Source: an uncultured Acidobacteriota bacterium (lineage in GTDB: Bacteria > Acidobacteriota > Thermoanaerobaculia > Multivoradales > JAHEKO01). From it: a stretch of 64,000 nucleotides of DNA. The stretch covers positions 672,001 to 736,000 of the forward strand of contig CAVQNG010000003.1 of NCBI GenBank assembly GCA_963713825.1, given 5' to 3'. The position numbers and the translations under genes are program-made. The notes beneath the pieces were generated by a model. It was not told where the DNA came from. It saw only the letters and a program-made list of their open reading frames with translations, and did not search any database. The stretch's first letter is position 1; every line of letters begins with the position of its first letter. This document shows positions 5,549 to 49,222 of this stretch, one piece after another.

Positions 5549-5555
5549 ACACCCT

Positions 5556-6374: not shown

Positions 6375-6418
6375 TTTCCTCGAATACCCTCAGCTCCTCG
6401 ACTGCGATTCGATACGTC

Positions 6419-27859: not shown

Positions 27860-28711
27860 TTACTGCGAGAACGGCCCCACAAGCTGCAGCGTCATTCGAC
27901 GCACGACCTGAGCGAGAGCGAAGCGACGGTACTCGGCGGTTGACCGCACGTCGTCAATGGGCCTGACAGCTTGCGCTGCCAGATGGCCGGCGAGGTCGGC
28001 GACTTCCGTCTTCGCGGTCCTGCCCACCATCGCCTCTTCGACCTCGGTCAACCGAACGGGAGTCTCCGCAACGCTGCCGGCCGCCAGCCGATACTCGGCA
28101 ATCACGCCTTCGCTGACGCTGGCCAGCAGGGCCACCACGACTTTGCTGATCGCCTGCGCTTCCCGCGTTCCCACCTTACGAAAGAACTGTGTCGCCCCGG
28201 CTGGGGGCTGCGGCAGTTCGACCCAACCGATGATCTCTCCGGGAGCTAGCGCGGTCTGCCGATACCCGAGATGAAAATTGCGATAGGGCACGGTGCGCCT
28301 GCCCTCTGGACCCACGAGGACGACCTGGGCATCCAGGACCAACAGCACCGGCAGTGAGTCTCCGGCCGGGCTGGCGTTGGCCATGTTGCCACCGAGACTG
28401 GCCCGGTTCTGGATCTGCCAACCGCCGATTCTGGACGCTGCCTCTGCCAGCGCCGGAAAGCTCTGTCGCACCTCTGGAGAATCACGGATTTCTGAGAAAG
28501 GAGTGACGGCTCCGATCTCCAGCACCCCGTTCCGCCATCGAATACCGCGCAGCTCCGCGATCCCCTGCAGGTCGACGACTCCCGGCAATTCGAGTCGCTC
28601 TTCCGGCTCGCTGACCATGAGATCCGTACAGCCTGCCAGCGGGCGAAGATTCGGCTGCTCCGCCAGCCGTTCCAGAGCCTCGTCCAGCGATCTCGGGGCA
28701 AAGGCCTTCAC
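27860..28711 (-). CDS. Xanthine dehydrogenase family FAD-binding subunit (CoxM/XdhB-like)
   Basis: LAGCTDL, QIQNRASLGGNMANASPAGD, PIDDVRSTAEYR. Confidence 0.93.
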   Translation of the reverse strand: MKAFAPRSLDEALERLAEQPNLRPLAGCTDLMVSEPEERLELPGVVDLQGIAELRGIRWRNGVLEIGAVTPFSEIRDSPEVRQSFPALAEAASRIGGWQIQNRASLGGNMANASPAGDSLPVLLVLDAQVVLVGPEGRRTVPYRNFHLGYRQTALAPGEIIGWVELPQPPAGATQFFRKVGTREAQAISKVVVALLASVSEGVIAEYRLAAGSVAETPVRLTEVEEAMVGRTAKTEVADLAGHLAAQAVRPIDDVRSTAEYRRFALAQVVRRMTLQLVGPFSQ

Positions 28712-29166
28712 TCTTCGTCCTCCGTCTCACGCGCGAAGGCCCGATGGATCCCTTCGTAGCCCGTGCACCGACAGAGATTCCCCGCCAGTGCCGCCTGCAC
28801 TTCCTGCCGGCTGGGATCAGGATTGTCGCGTAGCAGTGCCCATGCCGTGACAATGATGCCCGGGGTGCAAGCACCACACTGCACACCACCGTCGCTGACG
28901 AAGCCTTCGAGAAAGGCTTGGGCCTCGGGCGCAGCAAGACCCTCCACCGTTTCGATCGTCGCCTCGGCGCACTGGATCCGGGGGATGAGGCAGGAGAGCA
29001 CCGGTTCGCCGTTCATCAGCACCGTGCACGCCCCGCACTCGCCCTCGCCACAACCCTCCTTGGTGCCGATCAGATCGAGCTCGTCTCGTAGGATGTCCAA
29101 AAGACGTGCCATGGGGTGGCCCTCGACGACGATCGCCTCACCATTGACGACAAGCTCGGTCTTCAT
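28708..29166 (-). CDS. Xanthine dehydrogenase family [2Fe-2S] subunit (CoxS/XdhC-like)
   Basis: GCGEGECGACTV..SC, QCGACTPG, NLCRCTGY. Confidence 0.95.
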   Translation of the reverse strand: MKTELVVNGEAIVVEGHPMARLLDILRDELDLIGTKEGCGEGECGACTVLMNGEPVLSCLIPRIQCAEATIETVEGLAAPEAQAFLEGFVSDGGVQCGACTPGIIVTAWALLRDNPDPSRQEVQAALAGNLCRCTGYEGIHRAFARETEDEE

Positions 29167-31466
29167 CGTCCTTGCCCTCTGCCACTTTCCGGATCCTCGG
29201 GAGGAGCGGACACCCGCCGCCGGGCCGACGATAGGGCGAGTAGACGCTCTGGCGTGGCCGGTATCGCGTCGACCTCGATACCCGTGGCGTTCTCGACCGC
29301 CGAAACGGCCGCTGGAGCACCACCGTCCATCGGCAATTCACCCACGCCTTTGGCCCCGAAAGCACCACCTTTCCAGGGCTTCTCCAACAGAAATACCTCC
29401 ATCTCGGGGCTGTCCCTGATGGTGGGGATGATGTAGGTGGCGAGCCGGTCGTTCAGATAGCGCCCCTGCTCCAACTTGACCTCCTCCAGCAGCCCCCACG
29501 CCACGGCCTGCAGGGTGCCGCCCTCGACCTGGCCGACGCAGAGCTTTTCGTGCAGAACGCGCCCGACTTCGCAGACGGCGGTGACCTTCTTTGGGCGCAC
29601 CTCGAGGGTGTCAGGGTCCACCTCGACTTCCACCACGTCGGCCCCGAATGCGTAAGTCGGATAGGCAACCCCCTGGTAGGTCTCCTCGTCGAAGACCTGC
29701 CACTCTGGAGGCTCATGGCGGCGCGATACGACCAGGGGCTCCATCGCCTCGGCATAGCACTTTGCGACTTCTCGGAACGACCAGCTCCTGCCGCTCTCGC
29801 TATGCACAACGCCGTCCTCGACGGCGGGAATCGATCCCTCGTTCTGACGGTCGGACCACCAGGCCAGAACGCGATCCCGAACTTCGCTCACCACGAAAGC
29901 GACCTCGCTACCCACCACCATCGAAGTGCGCGACGCGACGCTGGGACCGGAATCGGGGACCCTGGAGGTATCCGGAGGTGCCAACACCACATCGTGCACG
30001 CTCAGACCGCTGGCCTCGGCTGCCATCATCGGAAAGACCGTGTCACAGCCCTGTCCCATCTCCACCGCTGCCGTGCGCACCTCGACCCTTCCATCCTCGA
30101 GCAGGGCACCCTCGATGACCGACTGCAGAACCCGTTCGCCGTTGCCGGTAAATCCTGCACCATGGAAATAGAGGCTCAAGCCCACACCCGGCGACGGTTC
30201 ACCATCGCGGTGGGTCGCGCGTTGCGCTTCGAGATGCTGCCAACGCTGCTGGAAATCGGTCTCCCGAGCTGCTTTCTCGAGACAGAGACGAGCCGAGCAG
30301 CTCTCATCCATCCTCTGACCCGTCGGCAGCCTGTCGCCTTCCTCCAGCACGTTTCGGAGCCGGATCTCCAGTGGGTCGAGGCCCAGGCGCCGGCCGATCC
30401 GGTCCATCTGTCGCTCGGCGGCGAACTGCACCTGGGGGGCTCCGAAACCGCGAAAGGCGCCGTTGGGTGGTGTGTTCGTGCGCAGCACTTTGCCCCGAAT
30501 GTGGACGTTAGGGCACCGATAGGGGCCGACGGCGTGCAGCACGGCTCGTGAAAGGACCACCGGGGAGAGGGTTCTGAAGGCCCCTCCATCCAGCAGTACA
30601 TCGATCTCCATGGCCCGCAGGCGGCCTGCGGAATCGACCGCGGCTCGATGGGTCACCATCGAAGGGTGCCGTTTGGTCGTGCCCACGATGTCTTCATGGC
30701 GGTCGTAGGCGATACGAACAGGGTTACCGCATGCCTTCGCGAGGAGCGCCGCGTGCAGGGCGATGACGCTCGGGAAATCCTCCTTGCCTCCGAAGCCGCC
30801 GCCAACCGGTGTCGCCTTGACGACGACCCTGTCGGCTGCCAACCGCAGGGCGTGGACGAGCGAACGATGCACGAAGTAGGGGCACTGCATGGAGCCCTCT
30901 GCGATCAGGGTTCCATCGGCCTCCCACCAGGCACTCATGACCTGGCACTCGATATAGATGTGCTCCTGGTGCCCCGTGCGATAGGTGCCCTCCACCAAGA
31001 GGTGTGCCTTTGCAAGCTCCTTCCCGGCATTGCCACTCTCGAGCTCCAGGCTGTAGAGGGGCTCCTGTCGGCCCGCGGCCGAGAAATCCAAAACGGGCTC
31101 GATGGGCTCGTAGTCCACCTCGATGGCGGCCAGTGCCTGGCGGGCGGCCAGTCGCGTCGGTGCTGCCACGACCGCTACAGGCTCTCCTACGTGTTGGACG
31201 AGGTCCGCCGCCAGCACGGGCCATTCATCATCGAGGAGCTGTACGCCGTTCGGTCCAGGCAGATCGCCGGCGGTGACACAGACGGCTCCAGTCGGGGCTC
31301 GCTCGGGGTGCCACCGCAGTCGGCGAATACGCGCATGGGGATGCGGGCTTCGCAGTGTGGCGCCGTGCCACATGCCCGCTGCGGGCAGATCGTTGGCGTA
31401 GCGCAGGGTCCCACCCACCTTCGAGGCGCCGTCGGGGCGGGGTGGGCTCGAACCGAGAGTGCTCAC
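29163..31466 (-). CDS. Xanthine dehydrogenase family molybdopterin-binding subunit
   Basis: GGGFGGK, AFRGFGAPQ, EMGQG, ASR, GAKGVGE (catalytic Glu). Confidence 0.95.
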   Translation of the reverse strand: MSTLGSSPPRPDGASKVGGTLRYANDLPAAGMWHGATLRSPHPHARIRRLRWHPERAPTGAVCVTAGDLPGPNGVQLLDDEWPVLAADLVQHVGEPVAVVAAPTRLAARQALAAIEVDYEPIEPVLDFSAAGRQEPLYSLELESGNAGKELAKAHLLVEGTYRTGHQEHIYIECQVMSAWWEADGTLIAEGSMQCPYFVHRSLVHALRLAADRVVVKATPVGGGFGGKEDFPSVIALHAALLAKACGNPVRIAYDRHEDIVGTTKRHPSMVTHRAAVDSAGRLRAMEIDVLLDGGAFRTLSPVVLSRAVLHAVGPYRCPNVHIRGKVLRTNTPPNGAFRGFGAPQVQFAAERQMDRIGRRLGLDPLEIRLRNVLEEGDRLPTGQRMDESCSARLCLEKAARETDFQQRWQHLEAQRATHRDGEPSPGVGLSLYFHGAGFTGNGERVLQSVIEGALLEDGRVEVRTAAVEMGQGCDTVFPMMAAEASGLSVHDVVLAPPDTSRVPDSGPSVASRTSMVVGSEVAFVVSEVRDRVLAWWSDRQNEGSIPAVEDGVVHSESGRSWSFREVAKCYAEAMEPLVVSRRHEPPEWQVFDEETYQGVAYPTYAFGADVVEVEVDPDTLEVRPKKVTAVCEVGRVLHEKLCVGQVEGGTLQAVAWGLLEEVKLEQGRYLNDRLATYIIPTIRDSPEMEVFLLEKPWKGGAFGAKGVGELPMDGGAPAAVSAVENATGIEVDAIPATPERLLALSSARRRVSAPPEDPESGRGQGR

Positions 31467-32842
31467 GCCGCCAGGCTCCTGGCAAGATACCGCCCGGCGC
31501 CACGCTCTACCGCCAAGTCACCATCCTGGAATTGGATGCGCCCCGCGGCGATTACGGCTGAAGGCAGACCGGTGACGCTAAAGCCTTCGAAGATGCTGCG
31601 ATCGCAGCGCTGGTGGTGCGTGGCGGCTGAAATAACGCCGGTCGCCTCCGGATCCCATACAACCAGGTCCGCGTCGGCGCCGACCGAGATCGAGCCCTTG
31701 CGCGGATAGAGGCCGAAGAGCTGAGCGGGACGGGTAGAGACCAGGTCCACGAACTGCTGCAGTCCGATACGTCCTTGCCTCACACCATAGGAGTAGAGCA
31801 ATGCCAAGCGGTGCTCGACACCTGCGGCGCCTCCCGGGATCTGTCGAAAGTCGTTGCGACCCAGGTCCTTCTGCCCCTTCAGATTGAAGGGACAATGGTC
31901 GGTGCCCACGACTTGGAGAGCTCCGGTCCGCAAGGCCTCCCAGAGAGCTTGCTGATGCTCAGCCGATCGAATCGGCGGCGCGATGACGTAGGCGGCTGCC
32001 TCGAAATCAGGCTTCTCGTACACCGATTCGTCCAGGAGCAGGTACTGGGGACACGTCTCGCCATAGACCTCCAGCCCCGAGTCCCGAGCCTTTGTCAGGG
32101 CGTCAACGGCCTGCTGGCAGGTGACGTGGACGATGTAGGCGGAAGCTCCGGTCAGCCCTGCCAGGACCATCATCCGCTCGGTAGCCTCGCCCTCCAATTC
32201 GGGCGGCCGCGAGCGAGGATGGGCCTCCGGGCCCAGACTACCGGCAGCCGCCAGGCGGCTGCGCAGGTGCTCCACCATGTCCCCGTGCTCGGCGTGCACC
32301 AACACACGGGCTTGCAGGTTGTGCGCCGCCTCGAGGGCGCGAATCAGCGCCGCGTCTTCCAGGCCCACCGTCTCCTTGTAGGCCATGTAGAGCTTGAAGG
32401 AGGGAATTCCCTGGTTGTGGACGCAGTCGGCCATCCACCGCGTGGTCTCCTCCCCCCACCAGGTGACGGCCATGTGGAGCCCATAGTCGGCCACCGCCTT
32501 ACCAGCCTCCTCCTTGCGGGCCGCGAGCGCCTCCAAGAAGCTCTCTCCACGCTCTGGGTGAACGAAATCCACGATCGTCGTAGTGCCGCCTGCCAGCGCC
32601 GCCGCAGTACCACTCTCGAAATCGTCCGAAGAGACGGTGCCTGCCACTGGTAGCTGCATGTGAACGTGGGGATCGACGCCGCCGGGAAAGACCAGTTGGC
32701 CTGCGGCATCCAAGACTTCGTCTTCGGAGCCCGGCGCGAGAGCTTCGGCCAATTCCACGATCCGGCCGTCACGACATCGAATATCACCGCGCCAGCGCTG
32801 CTGGCCCGTCACGATGTCGCCGTTGCGGATGAGAATGCCCAC
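31463..32842 (-). CDS. hydA: Dihydropyrimidinase / D-hydantoinase (HydA/HyuA)
   Basis: PGGVDPHVH, GGTTT, SFKLYMAY (carboxylated Lys), VHAE, VHV, GTDHCPF. GTG start at 32842. Confidence 0.93.
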   Translation of the reverse strand: MGILIRNGDIVTGQQRWRGDIRCRDGRIVELAEALAPGSEDEVLDAAGQLVFPGGVDPHVHMQLPVAGTVSSDDFESGTAAALAGGTTTIVDFVHPERGESFLEALAARKEEAGKAVADYGLHMAVTWWGEETTRWMADCVHNQGIPSFKLYMAYKETVGLEDAALIRALEAAHNLQARVLVHAEHGDMVEHLRSRLAAAGSLGPEAHPRSRPPELEGEATERMMVLAGLTGASAYIVHVTCQQAVDALTKARDSGLEVYGETCPQYLLLDESVYEKPDFEAAAYVIAPPIRSAEHQQALWEALRTGALQVVGTDHCPFNLKGQKDLGRNDFRQIPGGAAGVEHRLALLYSYGVRQGRIGLQQFVDLVSTRPAQLFGLYPRKGSISVGADADLVVWDPEATGVISAATHHQRCDRSIFEGFSVTGLPSAVIAAGRIQFQDGDLAVERGAGRYLARSLAA

Positions 32843-32984
32843 GATCAACCTTTGAAGAGGCGCATGTTCTCCTGAGAGTAACGCGAATTCGCGCCTTGCA
32901 TAGCGGATTCTGCCTCTCAGAGTGGGTGAGAAGGACCTTCGGACCTGCGTTTCGACTCCCGAATCAAGTATCCTGTCACGCTGT

Positions 32985-35614
<2,630 letters not shown>

Positions 35615-35618
<4 letters not shown>

Positions 35619-36838
35619 CCACAGAACCATCTCTTTCGTTGGGCCCTGACCGGGACGGCAGGATTCTCGTCACGGCGGCCGGCCGTGTGGTCCGGTTCGA
35701 CGACGAGGCCACGCCTGGGACAGCCCCGGCGTCGAACCTGAGCTGCGAGCAAGCTCGCATCGAGCCCGGCAGGGTCAACGCTCACACCCACATCTACAGC
35801 GGGCTGGCACCGTTCGAGATGCCCCCCCCGGCAGTGGCGCCCGAGAACTTTCTGCAGATTCTCGAGCGCGTCTGGTGGCGGCTGGATCGGGCTCTCGACG
35901 AGGAGTCCCTGCGGGCTTCGGCCCGCTTCTACGTGGCCCAAGCCCTTCTCGCTGGTACCACAACCCTGGTCGATCATCACGAATCGCCAACTTTCATCGA
36001 CGGCTCGCTGGACATCCTGGCCGATACCTGTCAGGAGCTCGGGATGCGGGCGCTGCTGTGCTATGGCGCCACCGAGCGCAACGGCGGCCGCGAGGAGGCT
36101 CACCGAGGACTCGAGGAGTGCCGCCGGTTCCATCAGGACAACAGTCGATCGTTGGTTCGAGGACTCGTAGGGCTCCATGCCTCCTTCACGGTCTCCGATG
36201 AGACCATCGAGGAGGCTGCCAACCTGAGCCGCGAGCTCGACACAGTCCTACACGTCCATGTGGCCGAGGACCTGGCCGATGTCGAGGATGCCCTTGAACG
36301 GGGCTACGACGGACCGCTGGAGCGCTTGCTGCACTTCGGTGCCCTGCCGCCGGGTTCGATTCTGGCTCACTGTGTTCACTGCCAGGCGGCGCAAGTTCGC
36401 ACCATTGCCGCCCGAGACCTGTGGATCGTCCAGAACCCGCGCTCGAATCTTGGCAACGGTGTGGGCTACCCCGCGGCCCTCAGCGAGAGTAACCAGGTGG
36501 CGGTCGGAACCGACGGCTATCCGGCCCGCATGGAGGACGAGGTGCTCGTCCTGAGAGCCGAGGCTGCCGAACACGGCGAAGCCGAGACTGTCATCACTGC
36601 TCGCGTCGCCGGCGCCTACCAGCTCGGAGCCGAACGCATTGGCCTCCAGCTGGCACCTTTGACACCAGGTGGTGCCGCTGATTTCATTGTGCGCGACAAC
36701 GACCGGGTCCGCCATGTTGGAGTAGCCGGTCGAGTTGTGGTTCGTGACGGCAGCTTGACGACTGCCGACCTGGAAGAAATCCATGCTCATGCGGTGGAGC
36801 AGGCCAGGCGTCTGTGGAACCGACTGGGCTCTGTGTAG
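35615..36838 (+). CDS. ssnA: SsnA-like amidohydrolase
   Basis: NAHTHIYS, FLQILERVWWRLDRALD, GTTTLVDHHES, GLHASFT, HVHVAE, NPRSN, GTDG. GTGA overlap with xdh. Confidence 0.8.
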
Positions 36839-36854
36839 CGGGAGGTAACGTGTC

Positions 36855-38345: not shown

Positions 38346-38377
38346 GGTAGGCTCGAGCCTCGTCCCGGAATCGCATC

Positions 38378-39817: not shown

Positions 39818-39944
39818 CCTCCCTGCGGCATATATACTTCCCGTCAGCTTTAGCCGTACCCAAAACCAAGAGCCTCGTATCGCGGGGCCCAGGACGACAG
39901 GCTCTCTCGTTGGTCTGTCGCGATAGACAAACAAGGAGAACTCA

Positions 39945-40895
39945 ATGAGTGACACGAAAATCATTGTTGTCGTCGGAGCGACTGGTGCGCAGGGTGGTGG
40001 CTTGGTTCGCGCCATCCTCGATGACGAGGGTGGACCCTTCACAGCGCGCGCCATCACCAGAAATGTCGAATCGGAGAAGGCGCAAGAGCTCGCCACGCTG
40101 GGCGCCGAGGTCGTCGCCGCCGACATCGACGACCCGCAGAGTCTCGAAAAGGCCTTGGAAGGCGCCTATGGTGCCTACTTCGTAACCTTCTTCTGGGAGC
40201 ACTTCTCGCCGGAGAAGGAGATGGCCCACGTCCGAGCCATGGCCGAGGCCGCCAAGCACGCAGGGCTCCAGCACGTTGTCTGGTCGACCCTCGAGGACAC
40301 CCGGAATTGGGTACCGCTCGACGACGACTCGATGCCGACGCTGATGGAGAGCTACAAGGTGCCACACTTCGATGCCAAGGGTGCGTCGAACCACTACTTC
40401 ACGGACCTCGGTGTTCCCGTCACGTTCCTGCTTACATCGTTCTACTGGGACAACTTCATTCATTTCGGGATGGGGCCGCAGAAGGGACCCGACGGCAAGT
40501 ACACCATCGCCCTGCCCATGGACGACAAAAAGCTTCCGGGCATGGCTGCCGAGGACATCGGACGCGCCGCCTATGGCATCTTCAAGAAGGGGCCCGAGCT
40601 CATCGGCAAGACGATCGGTATCACGGGCGAGCATCTGTCTGGAGCGGAAATGGCTGCCGCGCTCGGCAACGCCCTGGGGGTGGAGGTGGCCTACAACGCC
40701 GTGCCGCCCGAGGTCTATCGCAGCTTCGGCTTCCCCGGCGCCGAAGACCTCGGCAACATGTTCCAGTTCAAGCGGGACTTCAACGACTACTTCTGCGGTG
40801 TGCGCAAGGTCGACGAGACTCGAGCACTCAATCCAGCCCTCCAGTCCTTCGACGAGTGGCTCGCCCGCAACGCTAGTCGCATCCCGATAGAGTAG
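39945..40895 (+). CDS. NmrA/HSCARG-family NAD(P)-binding protein
   Basis: VVGATGAQGG, VPHFDAK, RBS AAGGAG. Confidence 0.92.
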   Translation: MSDTKIIVVVGATGAQGGGLVRAILDDEGGPFTARAITRNVESEKAQELATLGAEVVAADIDDPQSLEKALEGAYGAYFVTFFWEHFSPEKEMAHVRAMAEAAKHAGLQHVVWSTLEDTRNWVPLDDDSMPTLMESYKVPHFDAKGASNHYFTDLGVPVTFLLTSFYWDNFIHFGMGPQKGPDGKYTIALPMDDKKLPGMAAEDIGRAAYGIFKKGPELIGKTIGITGEHLSGAEMAAALGNALGVEVAYNAVPPEVYRSFGFPGAEDLGNMFQFKRDFNDYFCGVRKVDETRALNPALQSFDEWLARNASRIPIE

Positions 40896-40938
40896 CCGGG
40901 CGACAAGAATCGAAATCGAGACCGACGAGGAGATACGG

Positions 40939-41175
40939 ATGATCCGACTTCGCATCAAGGAGACCGGCACCGAGCTGGGATCCATCACCGAGGAAGACCT
41001 GCAATTCCTCATCGATAATCTGGAAGAAGAGTGGGAGGAGGACCAGGACTACTACCTCAACCGCCAAACCCTGGAGATGCTCAAGGGCCGCGGCATCTCT
41101 GCCTCTCTCGCTCAGATGCTCGAACGTGCGATGGGAGAAGGCGACGACGTCGAGGTGGAGTGGTCGCGGGAATAG
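40939..41175 (+). CDS. Small acidic conserved hypothetical protein
   Basis: RBS GAGGAG and LGSITEEDLQFLIDNLEEEWEEDQDYYL motif. Confidence 0.8.
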   Translation: MIRLRIKETGTELGSITEEDLQFLIDNLEEEWEEDQDYYLNRQTLEMLKGRGISASLAQMLERAMGEGDDVEVEWSRE

Positions 41176-41301
41176 GCGCTCCTTGGACTTGCTTTCTTCG
41201 ATCACGCTGCTCGTCGCATTGTCTGCTGGCGCGCTGAGCTTACTGGCGGGCTGAGTGGCTCTGGCGAGGGCCCGACTCGGACGTCGCAGTCTGGAGAGTT
41301 C

Positions 41302-41958
41302 ATGTTTCTAGGTCATTTCGGAGTCGGATTCGGGGCCAAACGTATAGCCCCGAGGACGTCGCTGGGGACCCTGTTCCTGGCCTCCCAGTTCATCGATCTA
41401 CTCTGGCCCCTCCTCCTTCTCGTGGGAGCCGAGCGCGTCGCAATCGTGCCAGGCATCACGGTGGTTACGCCCCTGGACTTCACCCACTATCCGTGGTCCC
41501 ACAGCCTGCTGGCCGTCACGCTCTGGGGTGTACTTTTTGCAGCGACCTACTATCTGGTGAAGCGCTACAAGGCTGGAGCGTGGGTCTGCGGAGCCGCGGT
41601 CGTCAGCCACTGGGTACTCGATCTCGTGCTGCATCGGCCCGACCTGCCGCTGTTGCCCGGCGGTGACTACCGGGCGGGGTTCGGCCTCTGGAACTCTCTT
41701 GCAGCCACTCTCGTGATCGAGCTTGCGGTCTTCGCCGTGGGCCTTGTCCTCTATCTTCGAACCACGACCGCGTCTGATCGTATCGGGTCGATCGGTCTAT
41801 GGAGTCTGGTCGGCTTTCTCCTGCTGGTCTATGCGGGAAATCTGTTCGGGGCTCCTCCACCGAGTGTGCGCGCCATCGCCTGGCTAGGGCAGGCGCAATG
41901 GCTACTTATCGCGTGGGGCTACTGGATCGACCGACATCGAGTGACACAAGGAGTCTGA
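41302..41958 (+). CDS. Membrane-bound metal-dependent hydrolase (YdjM/DUF457-like)
   Basis: MFLGH, FIDLL, YPWSHSL, SHWVLDLVLHRPDLP. Confidence 0.8.
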   Translation: MFLGHFGVGFGAKRIAPRTSLGTLFLASQFIDLLWPLLLLVGAERVAIVPGITVVTPLDFTHYPWSHSLLAVTLWGVLFAATYYLVKRYKAGAWVCGAAVVSHWVLDLVLHRPDLPLLPGGDYRAGFGLWNSLAATLVIELAVFAVGLVLYLRTTTASDRIGSIGLWSLVGFLLLVYAGNLFGAPPPSVRAIAWLGQAQWLLIAWGYWIDRHRVTQGV

Positions 41959-42054
41959 ATGACCCTCGCCCTGACCGCGACGGTCTACCTGATCCTCGGA
42001 CTTCTGAAGAGCAGGCCCTGATCCAAGCGTCCACGCCCCGGGAGGAAGACTTCG

Positions 42055-42996
42055 TCAGGGCACGATATGGGTGCCGGCCGAGCCGCGAATGGCAGCCTCG
42101 AGTAGGTGGGGCTGGGTAATGATTACCTCCTGGCCGCCATGCTCCAGGAACTCGATCGCCGCTTCGATCTTGGGCTTCATGCTGCCGGGCGGGAAATGAC
42201 CTGCCTCGAGATACAGCCGCGCCTCGCGGACGGTCATTCGATCGATCTCCCGCTGCTCGGGCTTCCCGAAGTTCAGAGCCACCCTGTCCACTGCCGTCGA
42301 GAGGATGAACATCTCGGCTCCGAGGTTCTTGGCCAGCATGCATGAGGCCCAGTCCTTGTCGACAACGGCACCCACCCCTTCGAGGCCACCGTCGTCCCGG
42401 CGAATCACCGGAATCCCGCCACCGCCAACCGCCACCACGATGATGTCCTTGGCCAACAGTGCCTCGATGGCCGGCTCCTCGATGATCTCCAGTGGCCGGG
42501 GTGACGCGACCACCCGCCGCCAGCCCCGCCCGGCGTCCTCGACCATCATCCACCCTTCGTTGTCCTGGTGCTCACGTGCTGTTGCCTCGCTGTAGAAGGG
42601 GCCGATCGGTTTCGAGGGCTTCTCGAATCCCGGGTCGTTCGCGTCGACCACCGTCTGCGTCACAATCGCGGCCACGGGCTTGTCGATCCCGCGGCGCCGC
42701 AACTCGTTGCCCAGGGTCTGGCTGATCTGATAGCCGATGGCACCCTGCGTATCGGCGCCACAACTGTCCAGGGGCACTTGGTGCAGCACCTCCTTGGCCA
42801 GCTCCGAGCGCAACAGGATGAAGCCGACCTGTGGGCCGTTGCCGTGCGTGATGACGACACGGTAACCCTCGGCCACGATATCGGCGATGTAATCGCTCGT
42901 CTCACCACAGGCCCGGTACTGATCGAAGACCGTCGAGTGCTCCGCATCTTTGATCAGCGAGTTACCACCAATAGCAATGACGACCAGCTTCTCCAT
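42055..42996 (-). CDS. arcC: Carbamate kinase
   Basis: VIAIGGNSL, THGNGPQVG, PSKPIGPFY, GWRRVVASP, VVDKD, GSMKPK. Confidence 0.95.
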   Translation of the reverse strand: MEKLVVIAIGGNSLIKDAEHSTVFDQYRACGETSDYIADIVAEGYRVVITHGNGPQVGFILLRSELAKEVLHQVPLDSCGADTQGAIGYQISQTLGNELRRRGIDKPVAAIVTQTVVDANDPGFEKPSKPIGPFYSEATAREHQDNEGWMMVEDAGRGWRRVVASPRPLEIIEEPAIEALLAKDIIVVAVGGGGIPVIRRDDGGLEGVGAVVDKDWASCMLAKNLGAEMFILSTAVDRVALNFGKPEQREIDRMTVREARLYLEAGHFPPGSMKPKIEAAIEFLEHGGQEVIITQPHLLEAAIRGSAGTHIVP

Positions 42997-43112
42997 GGAT
43001 CACCTCTCTCATGCCACGTCTCAGAGTTGAGACTCTTAGGCTATTATCCCGTTTCCAGACCCATTCAAGGGTCCTGAACTGTACGACCCCCGAAATCGGG
43101 AGGAGGTTTTCA

Positions 43113-44066
43113 ATGCGTAGCTTTCTGGGAAGGGACGTCCTCTCCCTCAAGGACTTCGACCGCGAAGAAGTCGATCACATTCTCGAAGTGGCCGAGGAAT
43201 TGGCTCCGATCGCCCGTAATCGTCAGAACACCGACTTGTTGCAGGACAAGATTCTGGCGGTGGCCTTCTACCAGCCCTCGACACGCACGCGGCTCGCCCA
43301 TGAGGCCGCGATGCTCCGCTTGGGCGGCAAGGTCACCGGCTACTCCGACGCCAAGATGACCCGCGCCGGCGACTTCTACCAGGAGACCATCAAGGACACC
43401 GTCAGGATGCTGGAGTGCTATGGCGATTGCATTGTCATGCGCCATTTCGAGCAGGGCGCACCCCACGAAGCCGCCCGCTGGGCAGAGGTTCCCATCATCA
43501 ACGGTGGCGACGGCTGGGGCGAGCACCCCACCCAGATCCTCACCGATCTCTATACCGTGCAGCAGGCCAAAGGCAGGATCGACGGCCTCAACTGGCTGGC
43601 CGTGGGTGACATGCGGATGCGCACCATGCACTCCCTGGCCTACGCCCTGACCAACTTCGACTGTCCCATCACTTTCGTCGCGCCGCCCGAGATCTCCCTG
43701 ACCGACGAGTTCAAGGCCGAGTTGGCGGGCTACGACCTCGACTTCCGTGAGGTGGACCATGTCGAGGAGGCCATCGCCGAGGCCGATGTGATTCTGGTCG
43801 AGCCCGTCGTGCAGCCCGACTACACCAAGTCCCGTGATGAGCGAGACGGGGACGTCGATCTGACACCGGCCAACTATCGGATCACCCGGGAGCTGCTCGA
43901 GGCCAAGGCCAAGTCGGATGCCGTGCTGCTGCACTCGCTGCCCCGCATGGACGAGATCCCGACCGAGGTCGACGACACCCCCTGGGCCTACTACTGGCAG
44001 GAGGCCTTCAACGGCGTGGTGATGCGGATGGCGTTGCTCGCCCTGGTCCTGGGAGCCAAAGAGTAG
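43113..44066 (+). CDS. Aspartate/ornithine carbamoyltransferase-family protein (ATCase-like, non-canonical)
   Basis: RBS GGAGG, PSTRT, NGGDG..EHPTQ, HSLPR. Lacks the ATCase KGE and RxQxER aspartate-binding motifs. Confidence 0.85.
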   Translation: MRSFLGRDVLSLKDFDREEVDHILEVAEELAPIARNRQNTDLLQDKILAVAFYQPSTRTRLAHEAAMLRLGGKVTGYSDAKMTRAGDFYQETIKDTVRMLECYGDCIVMRHFEQGAPHEAARWAEVPIINGGDGWGEHPTQILTDLYTVQQAKGRIDGLNWLAVGDMRMRTMHSLAYALTNFDCPITFVAPPEISLTDEFKAELAGYDLDFREVDHVEEAIAEADVILVEPVVQPDYTKSRDERDGDVDLTPANYRITRELLEAKAKSDAVLLHSLPRMDEIPTEVDDTPWAYYWQEAFNGVVMRMALLALVLGAKE

Positions 44067-44079
44067 GGAGCTTTTGGGG

Positions 44080-45270
44080 CTATAGGCGGCGCGGAGCCCC
44101 TCGCTGCAGCACTTCGGCGAGCACTCGGGCGGGATTCTCGAAGCGCGACAGTAGAATCATCGCCGCCATCACATAGGGCTTGTGCTCGGCCTCGTGGTAG
44201 GTGGCCGTCCGGTAGCGCTCGAACACGCTGGCGGCCACCTCACCCTCCTCACAACTGACTGCCGTGATATCGGCGGGGAGGCAGTGCATGTAGAGGGCTC
44301 GTCCTTCCTGCGTGGTCGCCATGAGCTCCTCGGTGCATTCCCACTGCTTGAACTGAGCGTTGTTCGCCACCGCCTCTTTCTCCAGTTCATCCATTTTGTC
44401 GGCCTGCCCCGAGCGCAAATAGCGGGTCCGCTTCTCCATGACGTGGAAGGGCGCCCAGCTCTTCGGGTAGACGACCTCGGCATCGGCGAAGGCTTCTTCC
44501 ATGCTGTGAACCAACTGGAAGGAGCCACCCGAACTCGCGGCCTGCTGGCTGGCCCGCTCGGCCGTGCCCGGCATCAGGTCATAGCCCTCGGGGTGAGCGA
44601 GCACCACATCCATCCCAAAGCGGGTCATCAGGTTGACGATGCCCTGGGGCACCGACAGAGGCTTGCCATAGGAGGGTGAGTAGGCCCAGGTCATGGCCAG
44701 CTTCTTGCCCCGCAGAGCCTCGAGCGAGCCGAAGGTCTTCCCGAGATGCATCAGGTCGGCCAGCGACTGTGTCGGATGGTCGCGGTCGCACTGCAGATTG
44801 ACCACCGCGGGACGCTGCGGCAACACCCCCTCTTCGTAGGCTTCGTCCAGTGAGCTCGCGACCTCGACCATGTACTCGTGCCCTTCGCCGATGAACAGGT
44901 CGTCCCGGATTCCGATGGCCTCGGTGAGAAACGAGATCATGGCCGCCGTCTCCCGCACCGTCTCTCCATGCGCCACCTGGGTCTTTGTTTCGTCCAGATC
45001 CATCAAGGACAGGCCCAGCAGGCTGGCGGCGCTGGCGAATGAGAATCGGGTACGGGTCGACTTGTCGCGGAAAAGAGAGACGGCTAGTCCGCCGCGAAAC
45101 AGACGCGCGTCGCAGTTGGCCCGATAGAGGTCCTCGAAGATCTCGGTGGCCAGCAGGAGCGCCTTGAGGTCGGCGCCCGATTGCTCCCAGGTCAGAAGGC
45201 AGTCCCTCTGGTAGAGATTCGTCTCTGTCCGGCCGAGCTCTTCGATACGTTGGCGAATCCGTTCCGACAT
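44080..45270 (-). CDS. ygeW: Knotted carbamoyltransferase YgeW
   Basis: FRDKSTRTR, HGETVRETA, LQCDRDHPTQ, WAYSPSYGKPLSVPQG, YPKSW, HCLPAD. Confidence 0.93.
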   Translation of the reverse strand: MSERIRQRIEELGRTETNLYQRDCLLTWEQSGADLKALLLATEIFEDLYRANCDARLFRGGLAVSLFRDKSTRTRFSFASAASLLGLSLMDLDETKTQVAHGETVRETAAMISFLTEAIGIRDDLFIGEGHEYMVEVASSLDEAYEEGVLPQRPAVVNLQCDRDHPTQSLADLMHLGKTFGSLEALRGKKLAMTWAYSPSYGKPLSVPQGIVNLMTRFGMDVVLAHPEGYDLMPGTAERASQQAASSGGSFQLVHSMEEAFADAEVVYPKSWAPFHVMEKRTRYLRSGQADKMDELEKEAVANNAQFKQWECTEELMATTQEGRALYMHCLPADITAVSCEEGEVAASVFERYRTATYHEAEHKPYVMAAMILLSRFENPARVLAEVLQRGAPRRL

Positions 45271-45288
45271 CCGATGCTCCTTGAGGTC

Positions 45289-47340
45289 CTATGCGTAGAG
45301 ACTGTTGATGTAGTTGATCCGATCCCCATCCAGAATCGCGAGTCGTAGCGCATCCATGAGAAAGAAGTACGTCAGGTCTACCTCGCCCTCGGCTTCCCCT
45401 TCGAGTGTTCCCTCAGGGTCCTGGCGGTCGAATCGTACCCGGAATCCTGGCCCGGTGAACGCGATCTCGTTCGCCTCGGCCCGCAGCTCGAACTCCTGGC
45501 CTTCGAAGCGGCCCAGCACCTCGTCGCGACCGGCCCGTCGCGCCATCTGGAAGCCATCCAACTCGATCGACGTCCTCCAGTCTTCAGCCCGCCGAAAGAA
45601 ACGCGGTTTGACGACGTAGGGCCCTCCATCTTCGGGGCAGAAGACGTCGCAGTTGCCGCACTCGTTGCAAAAGTCGGCGAAGGTGCCGATCTGGTGTCGC
45701 TCCTCGAGTCTCAGAGATCCCGTCTGCGCCCAATCCCAGCCTTCGGATCGCCGTTGCACCTTGACGACGGGAATCTCATCTCCTTCGATACGGTAGGTGA
45801 AGTTGGCATCATTGGGGCAGACCGGTACGCAGATGTCACAGGTGATGCAGTCGAACAGCTGCAGGTGGCGGCCGATCTTACGCGGTGCGGTGGCGTTGCG
45901 CTCCCGCCCGTAGCGGGGATCCCGTTCCACGGCCTCGACATAGCGTTCCGTGTTCAGCACCTTGGCAGCAGAGACCCACTGGCTGAACAGATCTTCTCCG
46001 GCCGCTTGTCTGAGGTCAGCCTCGTCCGACAGCGCTAGCAGGCAGGCCTCGCGAACTGGCGCTTCCGGGACTAACTCCAACTGGTCGAGGGCCTCTCGGC
46101 CCAGGTCATGCGCTCGCACGATGAAGTCGTCGATGGTCGGGGCGCCCACCTGCTCCATGCGTCGGGCCAGCTCTGCATGGTAGGCCTGCATTCGTCCATA
46201 ACCGCCCTTCTTCAGTAGGTCCGTGCAGACCGTCACCGGCACCAGGCCCAATGCCACCGCGTCCGGGAAATTGACGCTATCGATGCCAGCTGAGAACGAC
46301 ACCGGGATACGATCGCCGAAGTGCCGTCGAAAACGCCGCACCAGATGCATGGCAAGAACGTGGAGTGGCGGTCCCGACAAATAGACCTCCCTCTCGCTCT
46401 CCGGCAGGAATCCCTGGTTGTTTTCGACGATCAGAGTGTTGGTGAACTTCGCACCCAGACCCAAATCGAGAGCCCTGGCTTTTTGCTCCAGTCGCTCCAT
46501 CATGGCAACGGCTTGCTCCCAGGTCGTATCCCGCTCGAAAGCGCTGGCCGGCACGCGGATATCGTGGTAACCGAGGCTGTCGTGCAGCAGGTGCGCGGTC
46601 TTCTCGCGGCCGAGCAGCATGGGATTGAACTTGACGACGCAGTTGAGCCGATACTCCTGCATCAGAAACAGGATGATGCCTTCGATCTCCTCTGGAGGAC
46701 AGCCGTGAAAGGTGCTCAGGGTGACCGTGTCCGCCAGGGAGTTGGAGAAATCCAGATCGCGCAGCTCGCCCAGCTCAGAGGGAATCTCTTGGCGCAGCCG
46801 TTCGATGGTTTCGCCGGCGCTCATCATCCCTTCAATGAACGATCGAACCCTGTCCGAACGGATGCCGGCGAGGTCGTATCCCACACTCAGGTCGTAAACG
46901 ATCTCTCGGCACCCCTGCACCCCTTCGATCTGGCCGCTGTCGGCGAGCATCTCGATCAGCATCGAGCCCTTCACGTACTCGTTCAGTGACTCTTCCAGCT
47001 TGAGCTCCTGGGACCACTCGGCGTTGAAGCCTACAGTCCGCATGTCGATGCAGGGGCGTGGAATCTCCAGGTCGTCGAGAACTTGGACGGTCTTCAGCTC
47101 CAGGATCCGGGCGCCGCCCAACCAGGCCAGAACGAGGTTCTGCGCCATCTGGGTCTGGGGGCCGGCCGCCGGGCCCAGCGGGCTGGGTACCCGGTGGCGG
47201 TGAAAGTCGACCGCGAAGTCCTGCCCATGCTTTGGGGAGAAGAACCGACTCCGCGGCAAGTCGAAGATCGATCCGCATGCCGCCAGCTCTCGGAACATGC
47301 GCCGCGTCAGCGCGGCAAAAGGATAGGGCGTCAGGTTCAA
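45289..47340 (-). CDS. YgfK-like oxidoreductase, short form (DHOD-like barrel plus C-terminal 4Fe-4S, no central NAD(P)H/FAD module)
   Basis: GPAAGPQTQMAQN, ELKTVQ..PCID..FNAEWS, TLSTFHGCPP, YLSG, CTDLLK.GGY, then FDCITCDICVPVCPNDAN and CNECGNCDVFCP. Likely TTG start overlapping the upstream stop. Confidence 0.85.
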   Translation of the reverse strand: MNLTPYPFAALTRRMFRELAACGSIFDLPRSRFFSPKHGQDFAVDFHRHRVPSPLGPAAGPQTQMAQNLVLAWLGGARILELKTVQVLDDLEIPRPCIDMRTVGFNAEWSQELKLEESLNEYVKGSMLIEMLADSGQIEGVQGCREIVYDLSVGYDLAGIRSDRVRSFIEGMMSAGETIERLRQEIPSELGELRDLDFSNSLADTVTLSTFHGCPPEEIEGIILFLMQEYRLNCVVKFNPMLLGREKTAHLLHDSLGYHDIRVPASAFERDTTWEQAVAMMERLEQKARALDLGLGAKFTNTLIVENNQGFLPESEREVYLSGPPLHVLAMHLVRRFRRHFGDRIPVSFSAGIDSVNFPDAVALGLVPVTVCTDLLKKGGYGRMQAYHAELARRMEQVGAPTIDDFIVRAHDLGREALDQLELVPEAPVREACLLALSDEADLRQAAGEDLFSQWVSAAKVLNTERYVEAVERDPRYGRERNATAPRKIGRHLQLFDCITCDICVPVCPNDANFTYRIEGDEIPVVKVQRRSEGWDWAQTGSLRLEERHQIGTFADFCNECGNCDVFCPEDGGPYVVKPRFFRRAEDWRTSIELDGFQMARRAGRDEVLGRFEGQEFELRAEANEIAFTGPGFRVRFDRQDPEGTLEGEAEGEVDLTYFFLMDALRLAILDGDRINYINSLYA

Positions 47341-48761
47341 CTGCCCATGTCCTCGGTAAAGACCGACCGGGGAGGGGCGTGCGGATAAGCCCACTTGCGA
47401 ACCGCGACCGCCTCTTTGACGTGGTCGATGACCTGAAGCGAGATCTCCGTGACGATCTGTTCCAGTTCTCCTTCAGTCATCTCCACGATGAGACCGTCCA
47501 CGGCATCACCGATCATGGCCTCTACGACTGTATGCCCCTCCTCGCTGGAAAGCGTGGCCGACAGCGTGTCGGCGAACGCATTGAAGACCACCTGTCCCAC
47601 GGTGACTACGAGCGGTCTCAGAACGGCATCCGGTAGAGGCACCATTCGCAGGGCGTCAGCACTTTCCACGGCCTGCTCCAGGTTGGTGTTCATGAAGCCC
47701 CTTGCCTGTTCCCTGACTTCCTCGCTGGTCAGGATCTCCTGCAACTGATTGGCCAGCTCGCGGCTCAAAGCGTCGCGGTGAGTCGTAGCGACCGAGCGGA
47801 TGATCTTCTGGTGGGTCCCGTCACGGATCTCGGCCTGGGTCTCGTTGAGGATGCGCAGCGACACCATGTCGGAGATCTCTTCGCTGATGATGTTGGCGAA
47901 GTACTTGACTGTGCGGCTGATGACGTCGTCCCCTACCTTCGAGTATTCGCTCTGGTGCAGGCGAATGTAGATGGAAGCCACCCGAAACAGACGGAAGAGC
48001 CGGAATTGCTTGAGCGGAATGATTCCCAGCAGGTCGTACCAGTGGAACAGCGGGTACAGAAACCAGGTGGCATAAGTCCCACGACGAACCGAGACGAACC
48101 AACCGATGAAGAACTCCGCCGCGAAGATCAGCAGAAAGGGGAGATCGATCTTCCAGAAATTGTCGGTGAGATTGCCGCCCAGATCATAGGTTCGGTAGAA
48201 GTTGACCTCCATCAGGGGTCGCACTGTGTCGTCGAAGAACTGAACCCGCCCGGGAAGCCTCTGAGGGTCCGGCTGCAGCGACCAGAAGTATGGGAGGCCT
48301 TCCTCGCTGGTCACTCCTTCCATGACGGCCATTCCGCCCGGCTCCTCTTGGAGGTACAGCTGCATTTCCTTGAGACTGCGAATCAGGCTCCGGGTCAGCC
48401 CCGAGCGCTCGAACGGGTTCTCCTTCACAATCGTCACGGAGAGCCCTTGTAACTCCACAAGTGTCGTTTCGAGCTCGAAGGGTGGCGCCGCCGCTTCGAG
48501 CTGCTCTTCGAGGCGATCGACGAGCGCCAAGGTTGCCGTCGTGAGCGGCTCGGGCTCGATGCCCTTGACCGGATCGTAGATTCGCGTGATCGACGGAAGG
48601 TGCCGGAAATAGACGGGGCGTAGCCAGAGGTAAGTGAGATCGAACAGGATCAGGCCCAGGTTCACGATGGCCAGATAGACCATCAAGAAGTCCCAAGCCA
48701 ACCGTGGCGTGAGACTCCTCCCGAAGGCTCGTAGCCGAGCGAATCTGCCTTCCCTGCTCAT
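47337..48761 (-). CDS. Ion-transport-like membrane protein with S4-like helix and long helical C-terminus
   Basis: S1-like helix, large loop, IDLPFLLIFAAEF (S2), WYDLLGIIP (S3), FRLFRLFRVASIYIR (S4-like). No pore signature. Confidence 0.7.
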   Translation of the reverse strand: MSREGRFARLRAFGRSLTPRLAWDFLMVYLAIVNLGLILFDLTYLWLRPVYFRHLPSITRIYDPVKGIEPEPLTTATLALVDRLEEQLEAAAPPFELETTLVELQGLSVTIVKENPFERSGLTRSLIRSLKEMQLYLQEEPGGMAVMEGVTSEEGLPYFWSLQPDPQRLPGRVQFFDDTVRPLMEVNFYRTYDLGGNLTDNFWKIDLPFLLIFAAEFFIGWFVSVRRGTYATWFLYPLFHWYDLLGIIPLKQFRLFRLFRVASIYIRLHQSEYSKVGDDVISRTVKYFANIISEEISDMVSLRILNETQAEIRDGTHQKIIRSVATTHRDALSRELANQLQEILTSEEVREQARGFMNTNLEQAVESADALRMVPLPDAVLRPLVVTVGQVVFNAFADTLSATLSSEEGHTVVEAMIGDAVDGLIVEMTEGELEQIVTEISLQVIDHVKEAVAVRKWAYPHAPPRSVFTEDMGS

Positions 48762-48845
48762 GACCAGAGTCAAGCGTAACGCATACCCGCCTGCTTTGGC
48801 TTTGGCGGATTGCACATTGCGCTGTCTCGCGTGGCAGGGCCGTGG

Positions 48846-49200: not shown

Positions 49201-49222
49201 GCTCGTAGTAGATTGGGCGTCC

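Follow-up and report, generated by a model that had tools for sequence, protein, structure and literature searches.

Within a 64,000-nucleotide stretch of DNA from an uncultured Acidobacteriota bacterium (contig CAVQNG010000003.1, positions 672,001 to 736,000; hereafter the window), we analysed a cluster of genes of the anaerobic purine and urate catabolic type. A sequence-only reading of this DNA had listed two xanthine dehydrogenases (XDHs), hydA/hyuA, an ssnA-like gene, ygeW, arcC and a ygfK-like gene within about 21 kb, and had placed the cluster at 27860..48761. Genes were called from the list of open reading frames (ORFs) together with Pfam and NCBIfam scans and BLAST against E. coli K-12 proteins. 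The results showed that all of the listed families are present and score far above chance in Pfam, NCBIfam and BLAST at or near the expected coordinates (Table 1). The span held for 27860-47394, whereas the ORF at its right end (47337-48815) encodes an unrelated membrane protein and not YgfK. The likely start codons of HyuA (32842, from 32842/32848), of the fused XDH (32985) and of a carbamoyltransferase related to aspartate carbamoyltransferase (ATCase; 43113) were refined.

On the minus strand, hyuA and the genes for the molybdopterin (Mo), 2Fe-2S (FeS) and FAD-binding subunits of a three-subunit XDH follow one another with 4-nt overlaps and are therefore read as a single operon. A divergent plus-strand operon runs from a fused FeS-Mo enzyme of the selenium-dependent XDH type (Se-XDH) through the ssnA-like gene to two genes for pyridoxal phosphate (PLP) enzymes, here called PLP1 and PLP2; the first two genes overlap by 4 nt, and the gaps that follow measure 16 nt and 32 nt in turn. 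The genes for ArcC, the ATCase-like protein, YgeW and a short YgfK stand beyond two unconserved ORFs (NmrA-like and YdjM-like). The window YgeW clusters at 90% identity with proteins that, where named, are assigned to 'Thermoanaerobaculia bacterium' metagenome-assembled genomes (MAGs), in agreement with the earlier assignment to an environmental Acidobacterium. Among named relatives, those nearest to PLP1 and to the ATCase-like protein are labelled Thermoanaerobaculia as well.

Table 1. Genes of the purine-type cluster and the ORFs lying within or beside it (positions in the window; scores are given against model cut-offs where available)
Feature	Position	Strand	Supporting match
XDH FAD-binding subunit, 283 aa	27860..28711	minus	PF00941 and PF03450
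XDH 2Fe-2S subunit, 152 aa	28708..29166	minus	PF01799 and PF00111; pucE-like, 163 bits, under cut-off
XDH molybdopterin subunit, 767 aa	29163..31466	minus	PF02738, PF20256, PF01315
HyuA / D-hydantoinase-dihydropyrimidinase	31463..~32842	minus	TIGR02033, 554 bits vs cut-off 393
Fused 2Fe-2S and Mo 'Se-dependent XDH'	~32985..35618	plus	TIGR03311, 914 bits vs cut-off 830
SsnA-like amidohydrolase, 407 aa	35615..36838	plus	top NCBIfam match SsnA, 285 bits vs cut-off 444
PLP1, CysK-fold PLP enzyme, 496 aa	36855..38345	plus	PALP, 32 bits vs Pfam cut-off 35
PLP2, threonine-synthase-like PLP enzyme, 479 aa	38378..39817	plus	PALP, 117 bits
NmrA-like ORF	39945..40895		no homologue in 80 PLP1 loci
YdjM-like ORF	41302..41958		no homologue in 80 PLP1 loci
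Carbamate kinase ArcC/YqeA	42055..42996	minus	NF009007, 416 vs 266; TIGR00746, 373 vs 358
ATCase-like carbamoyltransferase, 317 aa	43113..44066	plus	TIGR00670, 257 vs 237
YgeW knotted carbamoyltransferase	44080..45270	minus	NF005538, 622 bits vs 453
Short YgfK, 680-700 aa	45289..~47340	minus	aligns with E. coli YgfK 5-405 and 904-971
Membrane-protein ORF, 492 aa	47337..48815	minus	no Pfam, NCBIfam or PDB relative; no homologue in 80 loci

The sequence-only reading had further reported that the window holds no YgeY (an M20 peptidase) and no recognisable YgeX, and this was confirmed by Pfam, NCBIfam and six-frame tblastn. Among the 50 ORFs scanned in the 64 kb, no M20 peptidase and no match to a diaminopropionate ammonia-lyase model was detected by Pfam or NCBIfam, the Pfam scans likewise showed no YqeB, YqeC, MocA or purine permease, and E. 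coli YgeX, YgeY, YqeB, YqeC, MocA, XanQ and UacT gave no match at E ≤ 1e-3 in six-frame tblastn of the 64 kb. Nothing similar to selD appeared in the Pfam scans of the 50 window ORFs, and no sequence search was aimed at selD. These absences cover the 64 kb; ygeX, ygeY, selD, yqeB, yqeC and a second pyrB may lie elsewhere in the genome. The substitutes named in the same reading, namely two unusual PLP enzymes, a second carbamoyltransferase and a shortened YgfK, were all recovered (Table 1).

The reductive urate pathway was worked out in 2025, almost entirely in gut bacteria. According to the main texts, urate is converted to 2,8-dioxopurine by XdhAC or XdhD-YgfM and the product is dearomatised by YgfK; after ring opening by SsnA, HyuA opens the second ring to give 2,3-diureidopropionate, from which YgeW splits off one ureido group phosphorolytically; the carbamoyl phosphate so formed is used by YqeA to make ATP, while YgeY hydrolyses the other ureido group and YgeX converts 2,3-diaminopropionate to pyruvate (PMC12990295; PMC12507026; bioRxiv 10.1101/2025.04.24.650524). 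The ring opening by SsnA is described there as yielding ureidomethyl-hydantoin with minor 5-ureido-dihydrouracil, neither of which has a free amine (PMC12507026). The window cluster resembles the pathway of E. coli and C. sporogenes in that an FeS-Mo hydroxylase, the YgfK catalytic domain, a candidate SsnA-type enzyme, HyuA, YgeW and carbamate kinase are clustered, and it resembles C. sporogenes in the separate XDH beside them. It differs in having neither YgeY nor YgeX and in adding the ATCase-like enzyme and the PLP1-PLP2 pair; unlike E. coli, its YgfK has no NAD(P)H/FAD module and no selD, yqeB or yqeC is in view. In contrast to the gut hosts of the known pathway, the host is an environmental Acidobacteriota bacterium. 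We conclude that the gene cluster is real and coherent and represents a new version of an established pathway; three enzyme predictions follow from it, along with a lead on very large uncharacterised families.

The surroundings of PLP1 were surveyed in species-representative genomes. The best 80 of at least 600 PLP1 pattern matches, with PLP1 proteins 55-66% identical to that of the window, were taken with flanks of at most 10 kb. Genes in these loci were labelled by tblastn with window proteins, E. coli proteins and some locus proteins, and the key labels were verified by NCBIfam and Pfam. The results revealed PLP2 in 62 of the 80 loci; in 59 of these it shares the strand of PLP1 and lies no more than 300 nt 3' of it. 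Se-XDH (at least 45% identity) was found in 23 loci, SsnA in 29 and either of them in 30; SsnA lies directly 5' of PLP1 in 10 loci, and in five the colinear order SeXDH-SsnA-PLP1-PLP2 recurs. YgfK occurs in 7 loci, a luciferase-like reductase in 10 and ArcC in 13, and a pathway-type neighbour of any kind in 42. An unbiased clustering of neighbours returned, besides PLP2, only Se-XDH, SsnA, carbamoyltransferases and ArcC as recurrent families, with no other family in more than 8 of the 80 loci. The extra genes are conserved partners, not bystanders.

The ATCase-like gene was present in 14 of the 80 loci, mostly of Chloroflexia and Actinomycetota, together with a 325-aa transferase resembling ornithine carbamoyltransferase (OTC) in 11 and with ArcC in 9, the typical order being PLP1-PLP2-ATC-OTClike-ArcC. 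PLP2 is followed, as the next labelled gene, by the ATCase-like gene in 9 loci, by a CN-hydrolase in 3, by YgeW in 1, and by Se-XDH, SsnA or a GuaD-like amidohydrolase in 1 each. None of the 14 loci with the ATCase-like gene carries a YgeY-like protein, an M20 carbamoylase or a true YgeW, and for YgeY-like proteins and M20 carbamoylases together the count was 0/14 compared with 7/16 in the other purine-type loci (Fisher p=0.007, kinship ignored). YgeW, in turn, is accompanied by a YgeY-like M20 protein in all five loci that have it (L005, L013, L033, L034 and L063). An M20 carbamoylase and/or a CN-hydrolase was found in six loci (L028, L035, L053, L068, L071 and L076); the weak CN-hydrolase match of L056 (24%) was set aside from this count.

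A true diaminopropionate ammonia-lyase (NF006058, 289-513 bits vs 276) was detected in 5 of the 80 loci (L009, L047, L066, L068 and L076), and all of these except L009 are without PLP2. When the count is confined to the 69 loci in which the sequence continues for 1.7 kb or more 3' of PLP1, the lyase occurs in 3 of 14 without PLP2 vs 1 of 55 with it (p=0.02, kinship ignored). Two Thermoanaerobaculia loci (L005 and L013) hold Se-XDH, SsnA, YgfK, YgeW and a YgeY-like protein together with PLP1-PLP2 and no lyase, L005 having HyuA in addition; this is the canonical set with YgeX alone replaced. A different arrangement was seen in L068 (3656-8994) and L076 (6563-11476), where the lyase, an M20 carbamoylase of the 'hydantoinase/carbamoylase family' amidase type, a CN-hydrolase resembling N-carbamoylputrescine amidase, and PLP1 lie in this order on one strand; in L076 the genes abut and read as one operon. 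The arrangement resembles a diureidopropionate branch that is hydrolytic throughout, and neither locus shows upper-pathway purine genes. PLP1 is the constant element across the loci. It is partnered by PLP2 or, in rare cases, by the true lyase, and two decarbamoylating enzymes of interchangeable type stand alongside.

The survey supports the earlier proposal of a variant pathway with different lower steps, both through the frequency of PLP2 and through the exclusion of YgeY from loci with the ATCase-like gene. The 30 loci with Se-XDH or SsnA and the four lyase loci without PLP2 support it as well; its limits are the 38 loci without a pathway-type neighbour and L009, which has both PLP2 and the lyase. 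The p-values given above overstate the case because the loci are related to one another and were anchored on PLP1, limited to the best 80 and bounded by their flanks.

To characterise the second carbamoyltransferase, we compared the window protein and its counterparts, 15 sequences in all, with E. coli PyrB. The ATCase-like protein resembles PyrB in fold, in trimer-type motifs and in the carbamoyl-phosphate site (STRTR, R105, HPxQ and LPR); STRTR, R105, H134, Q137, R167 and LPR are kept in 15/15. It differs in that the 80s loop and the motif at 229-234, which bind aspartate in PyrB, are rebuilt, and in a catabolic setting where its neighbours are ArcC, another transferase and PLP enzymes. In 15/15 sequences the 80s loop, TRAGDFYQE, has K83D and K84Y, and all 15 also have an 8-residue insert, a variable residue (K/Q/A/H) in place of R229 and R in place of Q231. 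In E. coli ATCase, K84, R229 and Q231 bind aspartate and the transition state. Given these kept and replaced site residues, the protein is predicted to bind carbamoyl phosphate and an alpha-carboxylate, and not the side chain of aspartate.

A competing explanation is that the ATCase-like gene is the organism's pyrimidine-biosynthetic PyrB and stands beside arcC by chance. The protein clears the NCBI ATCase cut-off of TIGR00670 (Table 1), which counts against a catabolic role, it is about 40% identical to archaeal and plant ATCase structures, and its named relatives are all annotated 'aspartate carbamoyltransferase'; yet K84, R229 and Q231 are replaced throughout with the 8-residue insert adjacent, the Pfam scan found no pyrI or pyrC adjoining the gene, and the position directly after PLP2, with the OTC-like transferase and ArcC following, recurs across the loci as counted above. 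We therefore regard the PyrB explanation as highly improbable. The 120 relatives listed are 80-98% identical, 316-318 aa long and spread over several phyla, so that either the protein is unusually tightly conserved across phyla or it has spread recently. The family comprises more than 100 clusters, with organism labels that include Thermoanaerobaculia, Marinimicrobia and Anaerolineae.

PLP1 reaches 64 bits with the CysK models against a cut-off of 351 (TIGR01139) and thus falls short of the curated cysteine-synthase score. A 24-sequence profile of PLP1 matches CysK structures over residues ~90-400, leaving about 90 extra residues at the N-terminus and about 100 at the C-terminus. Invariant in 24/24 sequences are K112, the PLP lysine; S140-T-G-N143, the carboxylate loop; Q216-F217; the glycine-rich T257-G-S-x-G-T262 phosphate loop; and S362, in the S-S motif. 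Because the core PLP- and carboxylate-binding motifs are conserved, PLP1 probably catalyses a beta-replacement or beta-elimination. Its family is very large: of 8000 candidates scored, all passed, and the top 120 relatives are 58-94% identical, all but two at 65% or more, a conservation that extends across phyla. A protein-cluster query with PLP1 returned only generic 'PLP-dependent enzyme' clusters.

PLP2 scores 62 bits with the ThrC model NF006050 against 303. In a profile search its top PDB matches were short bacterial threonine synthases (1e-21), compared with 8e-5 for diaminopropionate ammonia-lyase (4d9g). All 37 of 37 sequences retain C9, C12, C26 and H37, which form an N-terminal Cys3His ribbon, as well as K144 and S176-C-G-N179. 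The Arg of the threonine-synthase NPxRxEGQKT motif, which binds phosphate in that enzyme, is missing, and the profile alignment has Ala or Val there. PLP2 resembles diaminopropionate ammonia-lyase (YgeX/DpaL) in being a fold-type II PLP enzyme and in occupying the same locus position by PLP1 and the decarbamoylases, and differs from it in lying closest to threonine synthases and in carrying the extra ribbon. Neither PLP1 nor PLP2 matched NF006058, TIGR03528 or TIGR01747 at E ≤ 1e-5.

Several apparent fusion proteins were found among the PLP1 relatives. P0144, a 1000-aa SsnA-PLP1 fusion with 6 members, might be real or could be a read-through artefact, and no conclusion rests on it. P0146, P0147, P0151 and P0153 have the appearance of neighbouring PLP1 and PLP2 genes merged through a frameshift, with out-of-frame junctions, and P0152 that of such a merge which also takes in an amidohydrolase gene; these were rejected as fusions, as were P0145 (junk N-terminus), P0154 (looks chimeric) and P0018 (internal duplication). 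In a distant PLP1-like subfamily, 45% identical, PLP1 is joined to an upstream ThrC-like protein (among the P0148, P0150 group), which suggests that the pairing of PLP1 with PLP2 is older than the present subfamily.

The PLP1-PLP2 pair might instead serve general amino-acid metabolism, with serine-, cysteine- or threonine-type beta-replacement or elimination, and be a frequent neighbour of nitrogen-catabolic genes without taking part in urate breakdown, the real YgeX and YgeY being encoded outside the window, which covers only 64 kb of the genome. In 38 of the 80 PLP1 loci the fetched flanks contain no pathway-type neighbour; the Acidimicrobiia pair is embedded among rph, rdgB, clpP, tsf and dprA, a housekeeping context from which a more general role may follow; L009, from Thermoanaerobaculia, has a 505-bit lyase beside PLP1-PLP2; and PLP1 retains all CysK-type catalytic motifs. 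Set against this are the short list of recurrent neighbours other than PLP2, the position of the pair inside an operon between ssnA and decarbamoylating genes, the two Thermoanaerobaculia loci with every canonical gene except ygeX, and CysK and ThrC model scores far under their cut-offs. On this evidence, a general amino-acid role for the pair is unlikely.

Further observations weigh, together with these, against assigning the extra genes to a lower urate branch. The surveyed loci are mutually related, are conditional on PLP1 and have flanks of at most 10 kb. The window is the sole one of 81 regions that pairs a true YgeW with the ATCase-like gene, HyuA occurs in only 8 of the 80 loci, and selD, yqeB and yqeC were not seen in the 64-kb window. 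PLP1 also occurs with the true lyase. In L066, L075 and L080 it lies directly 3' of the F420-biosynthesis genes CofD, CofC and fused FbiC on the same strand, and it precedes CoA-transferase genes in L045 and L080 and glycine-cleavage genes in L066. The F420-PLP1 segments span 6739-11479 in L066 and 5586-11491 in L075, both proteobacterial, and 7393-11497 in L080, from Bacteroidota. Luciferase-like genes are found close to PLP1 in L045, L066 and L075.

A further arrangement bears on whether the plus-strand operon works with the rest of the cluster. SsnA-PLP1-PLP2 lies amid unrelated genes in L001, L023, L038 and L056, which likewise counts against a urate assignment, and, with L035 included and with or without Se-XDH, three of the five loci are without a reductase, a hydantoinase and a carbamoyltransferase within 10 kb; a CN-hydrolase and an M20 carbamoylase are present in L035, and the weak CN-hydrolase in L056. 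SeXDH-SsnA-PLP1-PLP2 could thus be a self-contained route for another N-heterocycle, or for another fate of the purine skeleton, standing beside an incomplete canonical set of YgeW, YgfK and HyuA; the hydrolase would then yield an amino acid on which the two PLP enzymes act. The existence of the P0144 fusion fits such a route, as does the divergence of the window SsnA under both SsnA cut-offs. However, the SsnA products reported in the main text of PMC12507026 offer no free amine to PLP chemistry, the PLP pair shares operons with two lower-pathway carbamoyltransferases, often with ArcC, in 14 loci, and P0144 could be a read-through artefact like the frameshifted P0146 and P0147. We consider a self-contained route decidedly unlikely.

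The FAD subunit of the three-subunit XDH is 31% identical to E. coli XdhB and 27% to YgfM, and it may serve this XDH and/or pass electrons to the FeS-Mo enzyme. The Mo subunit scores highest with the pucD model (487 bits; cut-off 784); as this score lies under the cut-off, the model does not fix the substrate, which was read from context, and the enzyme is probably a xanthine/hypoxanthine dehydrogenase supplying urate. HyuA is 38% identical to E. coli HyuA, YgeW 59% to E. coli YgeW over 394 aa, and ArcC 47% to E. coli YqeA. The Se-XDH has Fer2_2 and MoCoBD domains fused without an FAD domain and is 26% identical to E. coli XdhD; this FeS-Mo fusion architecture is that of XdhAC/XdhD as presented in the main texts of PMC12990295 and bioRxiv 10.1101/2025.04.24.650524, and the protein is proposed as the putative enzyme reducing urate to 2,8-dioxopurine.

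The SsnA-like protein is 32% identical to E. coli SsnA and has the HxH, YSGL, WWRLDRAL and DHHxSP motifs in common with it. It belongs to a diverged subfamily that scores under both SsnA cut-offs (285 vs 444; 260 vs 455.5 for TIGR03314). The short YgfK aligns with E. coli YgfK at 38% identity over residues 5-405 and at 33% over residues 904-971, and comprises an FMN-type catalytic domain, with a weak DHO_dh trace, and a Fer4 (4Fe-4S) domain. Pfam gave no Pyr_redox match to it, the NAD(P)H/FAD (GltD-like) module being absent, and a PDB sequence search with it returned no match. The short form recurs in 5 of the 80 loci, and lengths of 600-800 aa were found in 58 of the 150 best representatives and in 35 of the top 40, so that it is a common natural architecture and not a truncation artefact. 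Our guesses for its electron donor are ferredoxin or the adjacent FAD subunit.

Taken together, the cluster very probably encodes a variant urate pathway, and there is a somewhat better than even chance that it is a working variant of reductive (2,8-dioxopurine) urate and purine fermentation with the lower branch set out here. The three-subunit XDH would convert hypoxanthine and xanthine to urate, and the FeS-Mo enzyme would convert urate to 2,8-dioxopurine. The short YgfK would dearomatise 2,8-dioxopurine with electrons from ferredoxin or a partner flavoprotein and not from NAD(P)H, after which the SsnA-like enzyme and HyuA would open the two rings to give 2,3-diureidopropionate. YgeW and the ATCase-like enzyme would then each remove one ureido group by phosphorolysis, and ArcC would make ATP from both carbamoyl phosphates. 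Because both ureido groups would in this way pass through carbamoyl phosphate to ArcC, the yield could reach up to two ATP per urate, not one. Of the two transferases, the ATCase-like enzyme would act on the 2-ureido (alpha) group, as its ATCase ancestry and the retained arginine for the alpha-carboxylate suggest, and YgeW, or the OTC-like protein, on the 3-ureido group, as in the order of Liu et al. The ATCase-like enzyme is a reasonable, slightly favoured candidate to replace YgeY.

PLP2 would deaminate 2,3-diaminopropionate to pyruvate in the stead of YgeX, a non-orthologous replacement to which we give an even chance. PLP1 itself was rejected as the replacement for YgeX, as it co-occurs with true lyases, and was also rejected as a supplier of selenium to the Mo enzyme, as it occurs in operons without any Mo enzyme (L068 and L076). 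The same co-occurrence with the true lyase points to a step without counterpart in the E. coli pathway. This would be an extra step on a free 3-substituted alanine, such as diaminopropionate or ureidoalanine: the CysK-type site argues for a free alpha-amino acid substrate that carries a leaving group at the beta position, or for racemisation, and the most likely chemistry is a beta-elimination, a beta-replacement or a racemisation. CysK-, ThrC- and ATCase-type enzymes normally take L-substrates. The intermediates of the canonical pathway, by contrast, are thought to be D-configured, according to the main texts of PMC12507026 and PMC12990295, and racemisation by PLP1 is therefore worth considering. 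Any single named reaction for PLP1 is at best doubtful. Similarly tentative, and in our judgement probably not correct in full, is the wider reading that PLP1, PLP2 and the ATCase-like enzyme form an unrecognised lower branch of purine fermentation in which both ureido groups are conserved as ATP and PLP1 catalyses a new reaction, as a racemase or beta-lyase on diaminopropionate or ureidoalanine, for which E. coli and Clostridium have no need in their pathway; such a branch would extend over Acidobacteriota, Chloroflexota, Actinomycetota, Myxococcota, Gemmatimonadota and Marinimicrobia-type relatives.

Fermentations that combine a carbamoyltransferase with carbamate kinase include the arginine deiminase, agmatine deiminase and oxalurate/oxamate routes, in which phosphorolysis of a ureido group gives carbamoyl phosphate and then ATP. 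Unlike arginine deiminase-type fermentations, the window cluster would use two transferases in succession on one diureido substrate. Published variants of the urate pathway also exchange single steps. The main text of PMC12507026 describes reductase swaps to UacX, a PydA-like enzyme of C. difficile, and to an F420 'luciferase-family' enzyme of Chloroflexota, as well as UacY, a D-aminoacylase-like hydrolytic swap for YgeW in C. difficile. The window cluster is like these variants in that single steps are taken over by non-homologous enzymes and the reductase can dispense with the NAD(P)H module, and it differs in that UacX and UacY affect the reductase and the YgeW step, whereas in the window it would be the YgeY and YgeX steps. 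UacY exchanges phosphorolysis for hydrolysis; the exchange proposed here, of hydrolysis for phosphorolysis, would be the energetic reverse.

C. sporogenes normally has a separate XDH that supplies urate, and variation of the reductase is published, as given in the main texts of bioRxiv 10.1101/2025.04.24.650524 and PMC12507026. The short YgfK and the two Mo enzymes are thus within known kinds of variation, and only the lower branch, at the YgeY and YgeX steps, would be new. Our literature search over main texts returned the three pathway papers and reviews, and in these there was no mention of the PLP pair or of an ATCase-like transferase in the urate pathway. In the main text of PMC12507026, the SsnA network of Li et al. 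is built from IPR017700 and 'YgeX' is coloured by PF00291. As PF00291 also matches PLP2, a substitution of YgeX could have gone unnoticed; with the SsnA-like protein scoring so far under TIGR03314, the variant may have been counted as YgeX or may be missing from the network.

PLP1, PLP2 and the ATCase-like enzyme apparently take the last steps of the pathway and are widespread in environmental bacteria. The cluster and its relatives suggest that free-living anaerobes in soil, sediment and water use the pathway as well, and that its last steps can be filled by modules that replace one another. One such module, in which another carbamoyltransferase takes the place of a hydrolase, may double the ATP gained from each urate. 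The relatives further suggest that three abundant, strongly conserved families probably belong to the recycling of purine nitrogen and have been mis-annotated or left without annotation. Should the wider reading hold, a function would be gained for very large families now named 'cysteine synthase', 'PLP-dependent enzyme' and 'aspartate carbamoyltransferase'.

An Rfam scan of the 64 kb gave 0 riboswitch or other RNA family matches, and a promoter and terminator scan of 31000-49500 showed no excess over shuffles (1 vs 2.4; 9 vs 9.1). There is no regulator inside the window cluster; in L047, a Nanopelagicales MAG, a PucR-family regulator of purine catabolism lies at 5126-6781, between PLP1 and the lyase. 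The 492-aa membrane-protein ORF, for which a PDB sequence search returned no match, contains an arginine-repeat helix, FRLFRLFRV, reminiscent of a voltage-sensor S4, and the region of its stop overlaps the short-YgfK ORF when the latter is read at its greatest length.

On its other side, the cluster is bordered by a 625-aa ORF without family (25414-27291), 5' of which a fusion protein of iron-dependent repressor and FeoA, followed by FeoB, is encoded at 22022-25311 on the plus strand. The segment 2001-4000 has a G+C content of 0.53, compared with about 0.62 elsewhere, and carries a sulfatase fragment (2252-3325) that matches profile positions 76-300 only; this segment may be degraded or acquired. 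At 58608-63215 on the minus strand lies a gene for a 1535-aa large helicase of the Lhr type with all winged-helix domains, an ordinary gene unrelated to the cluster.

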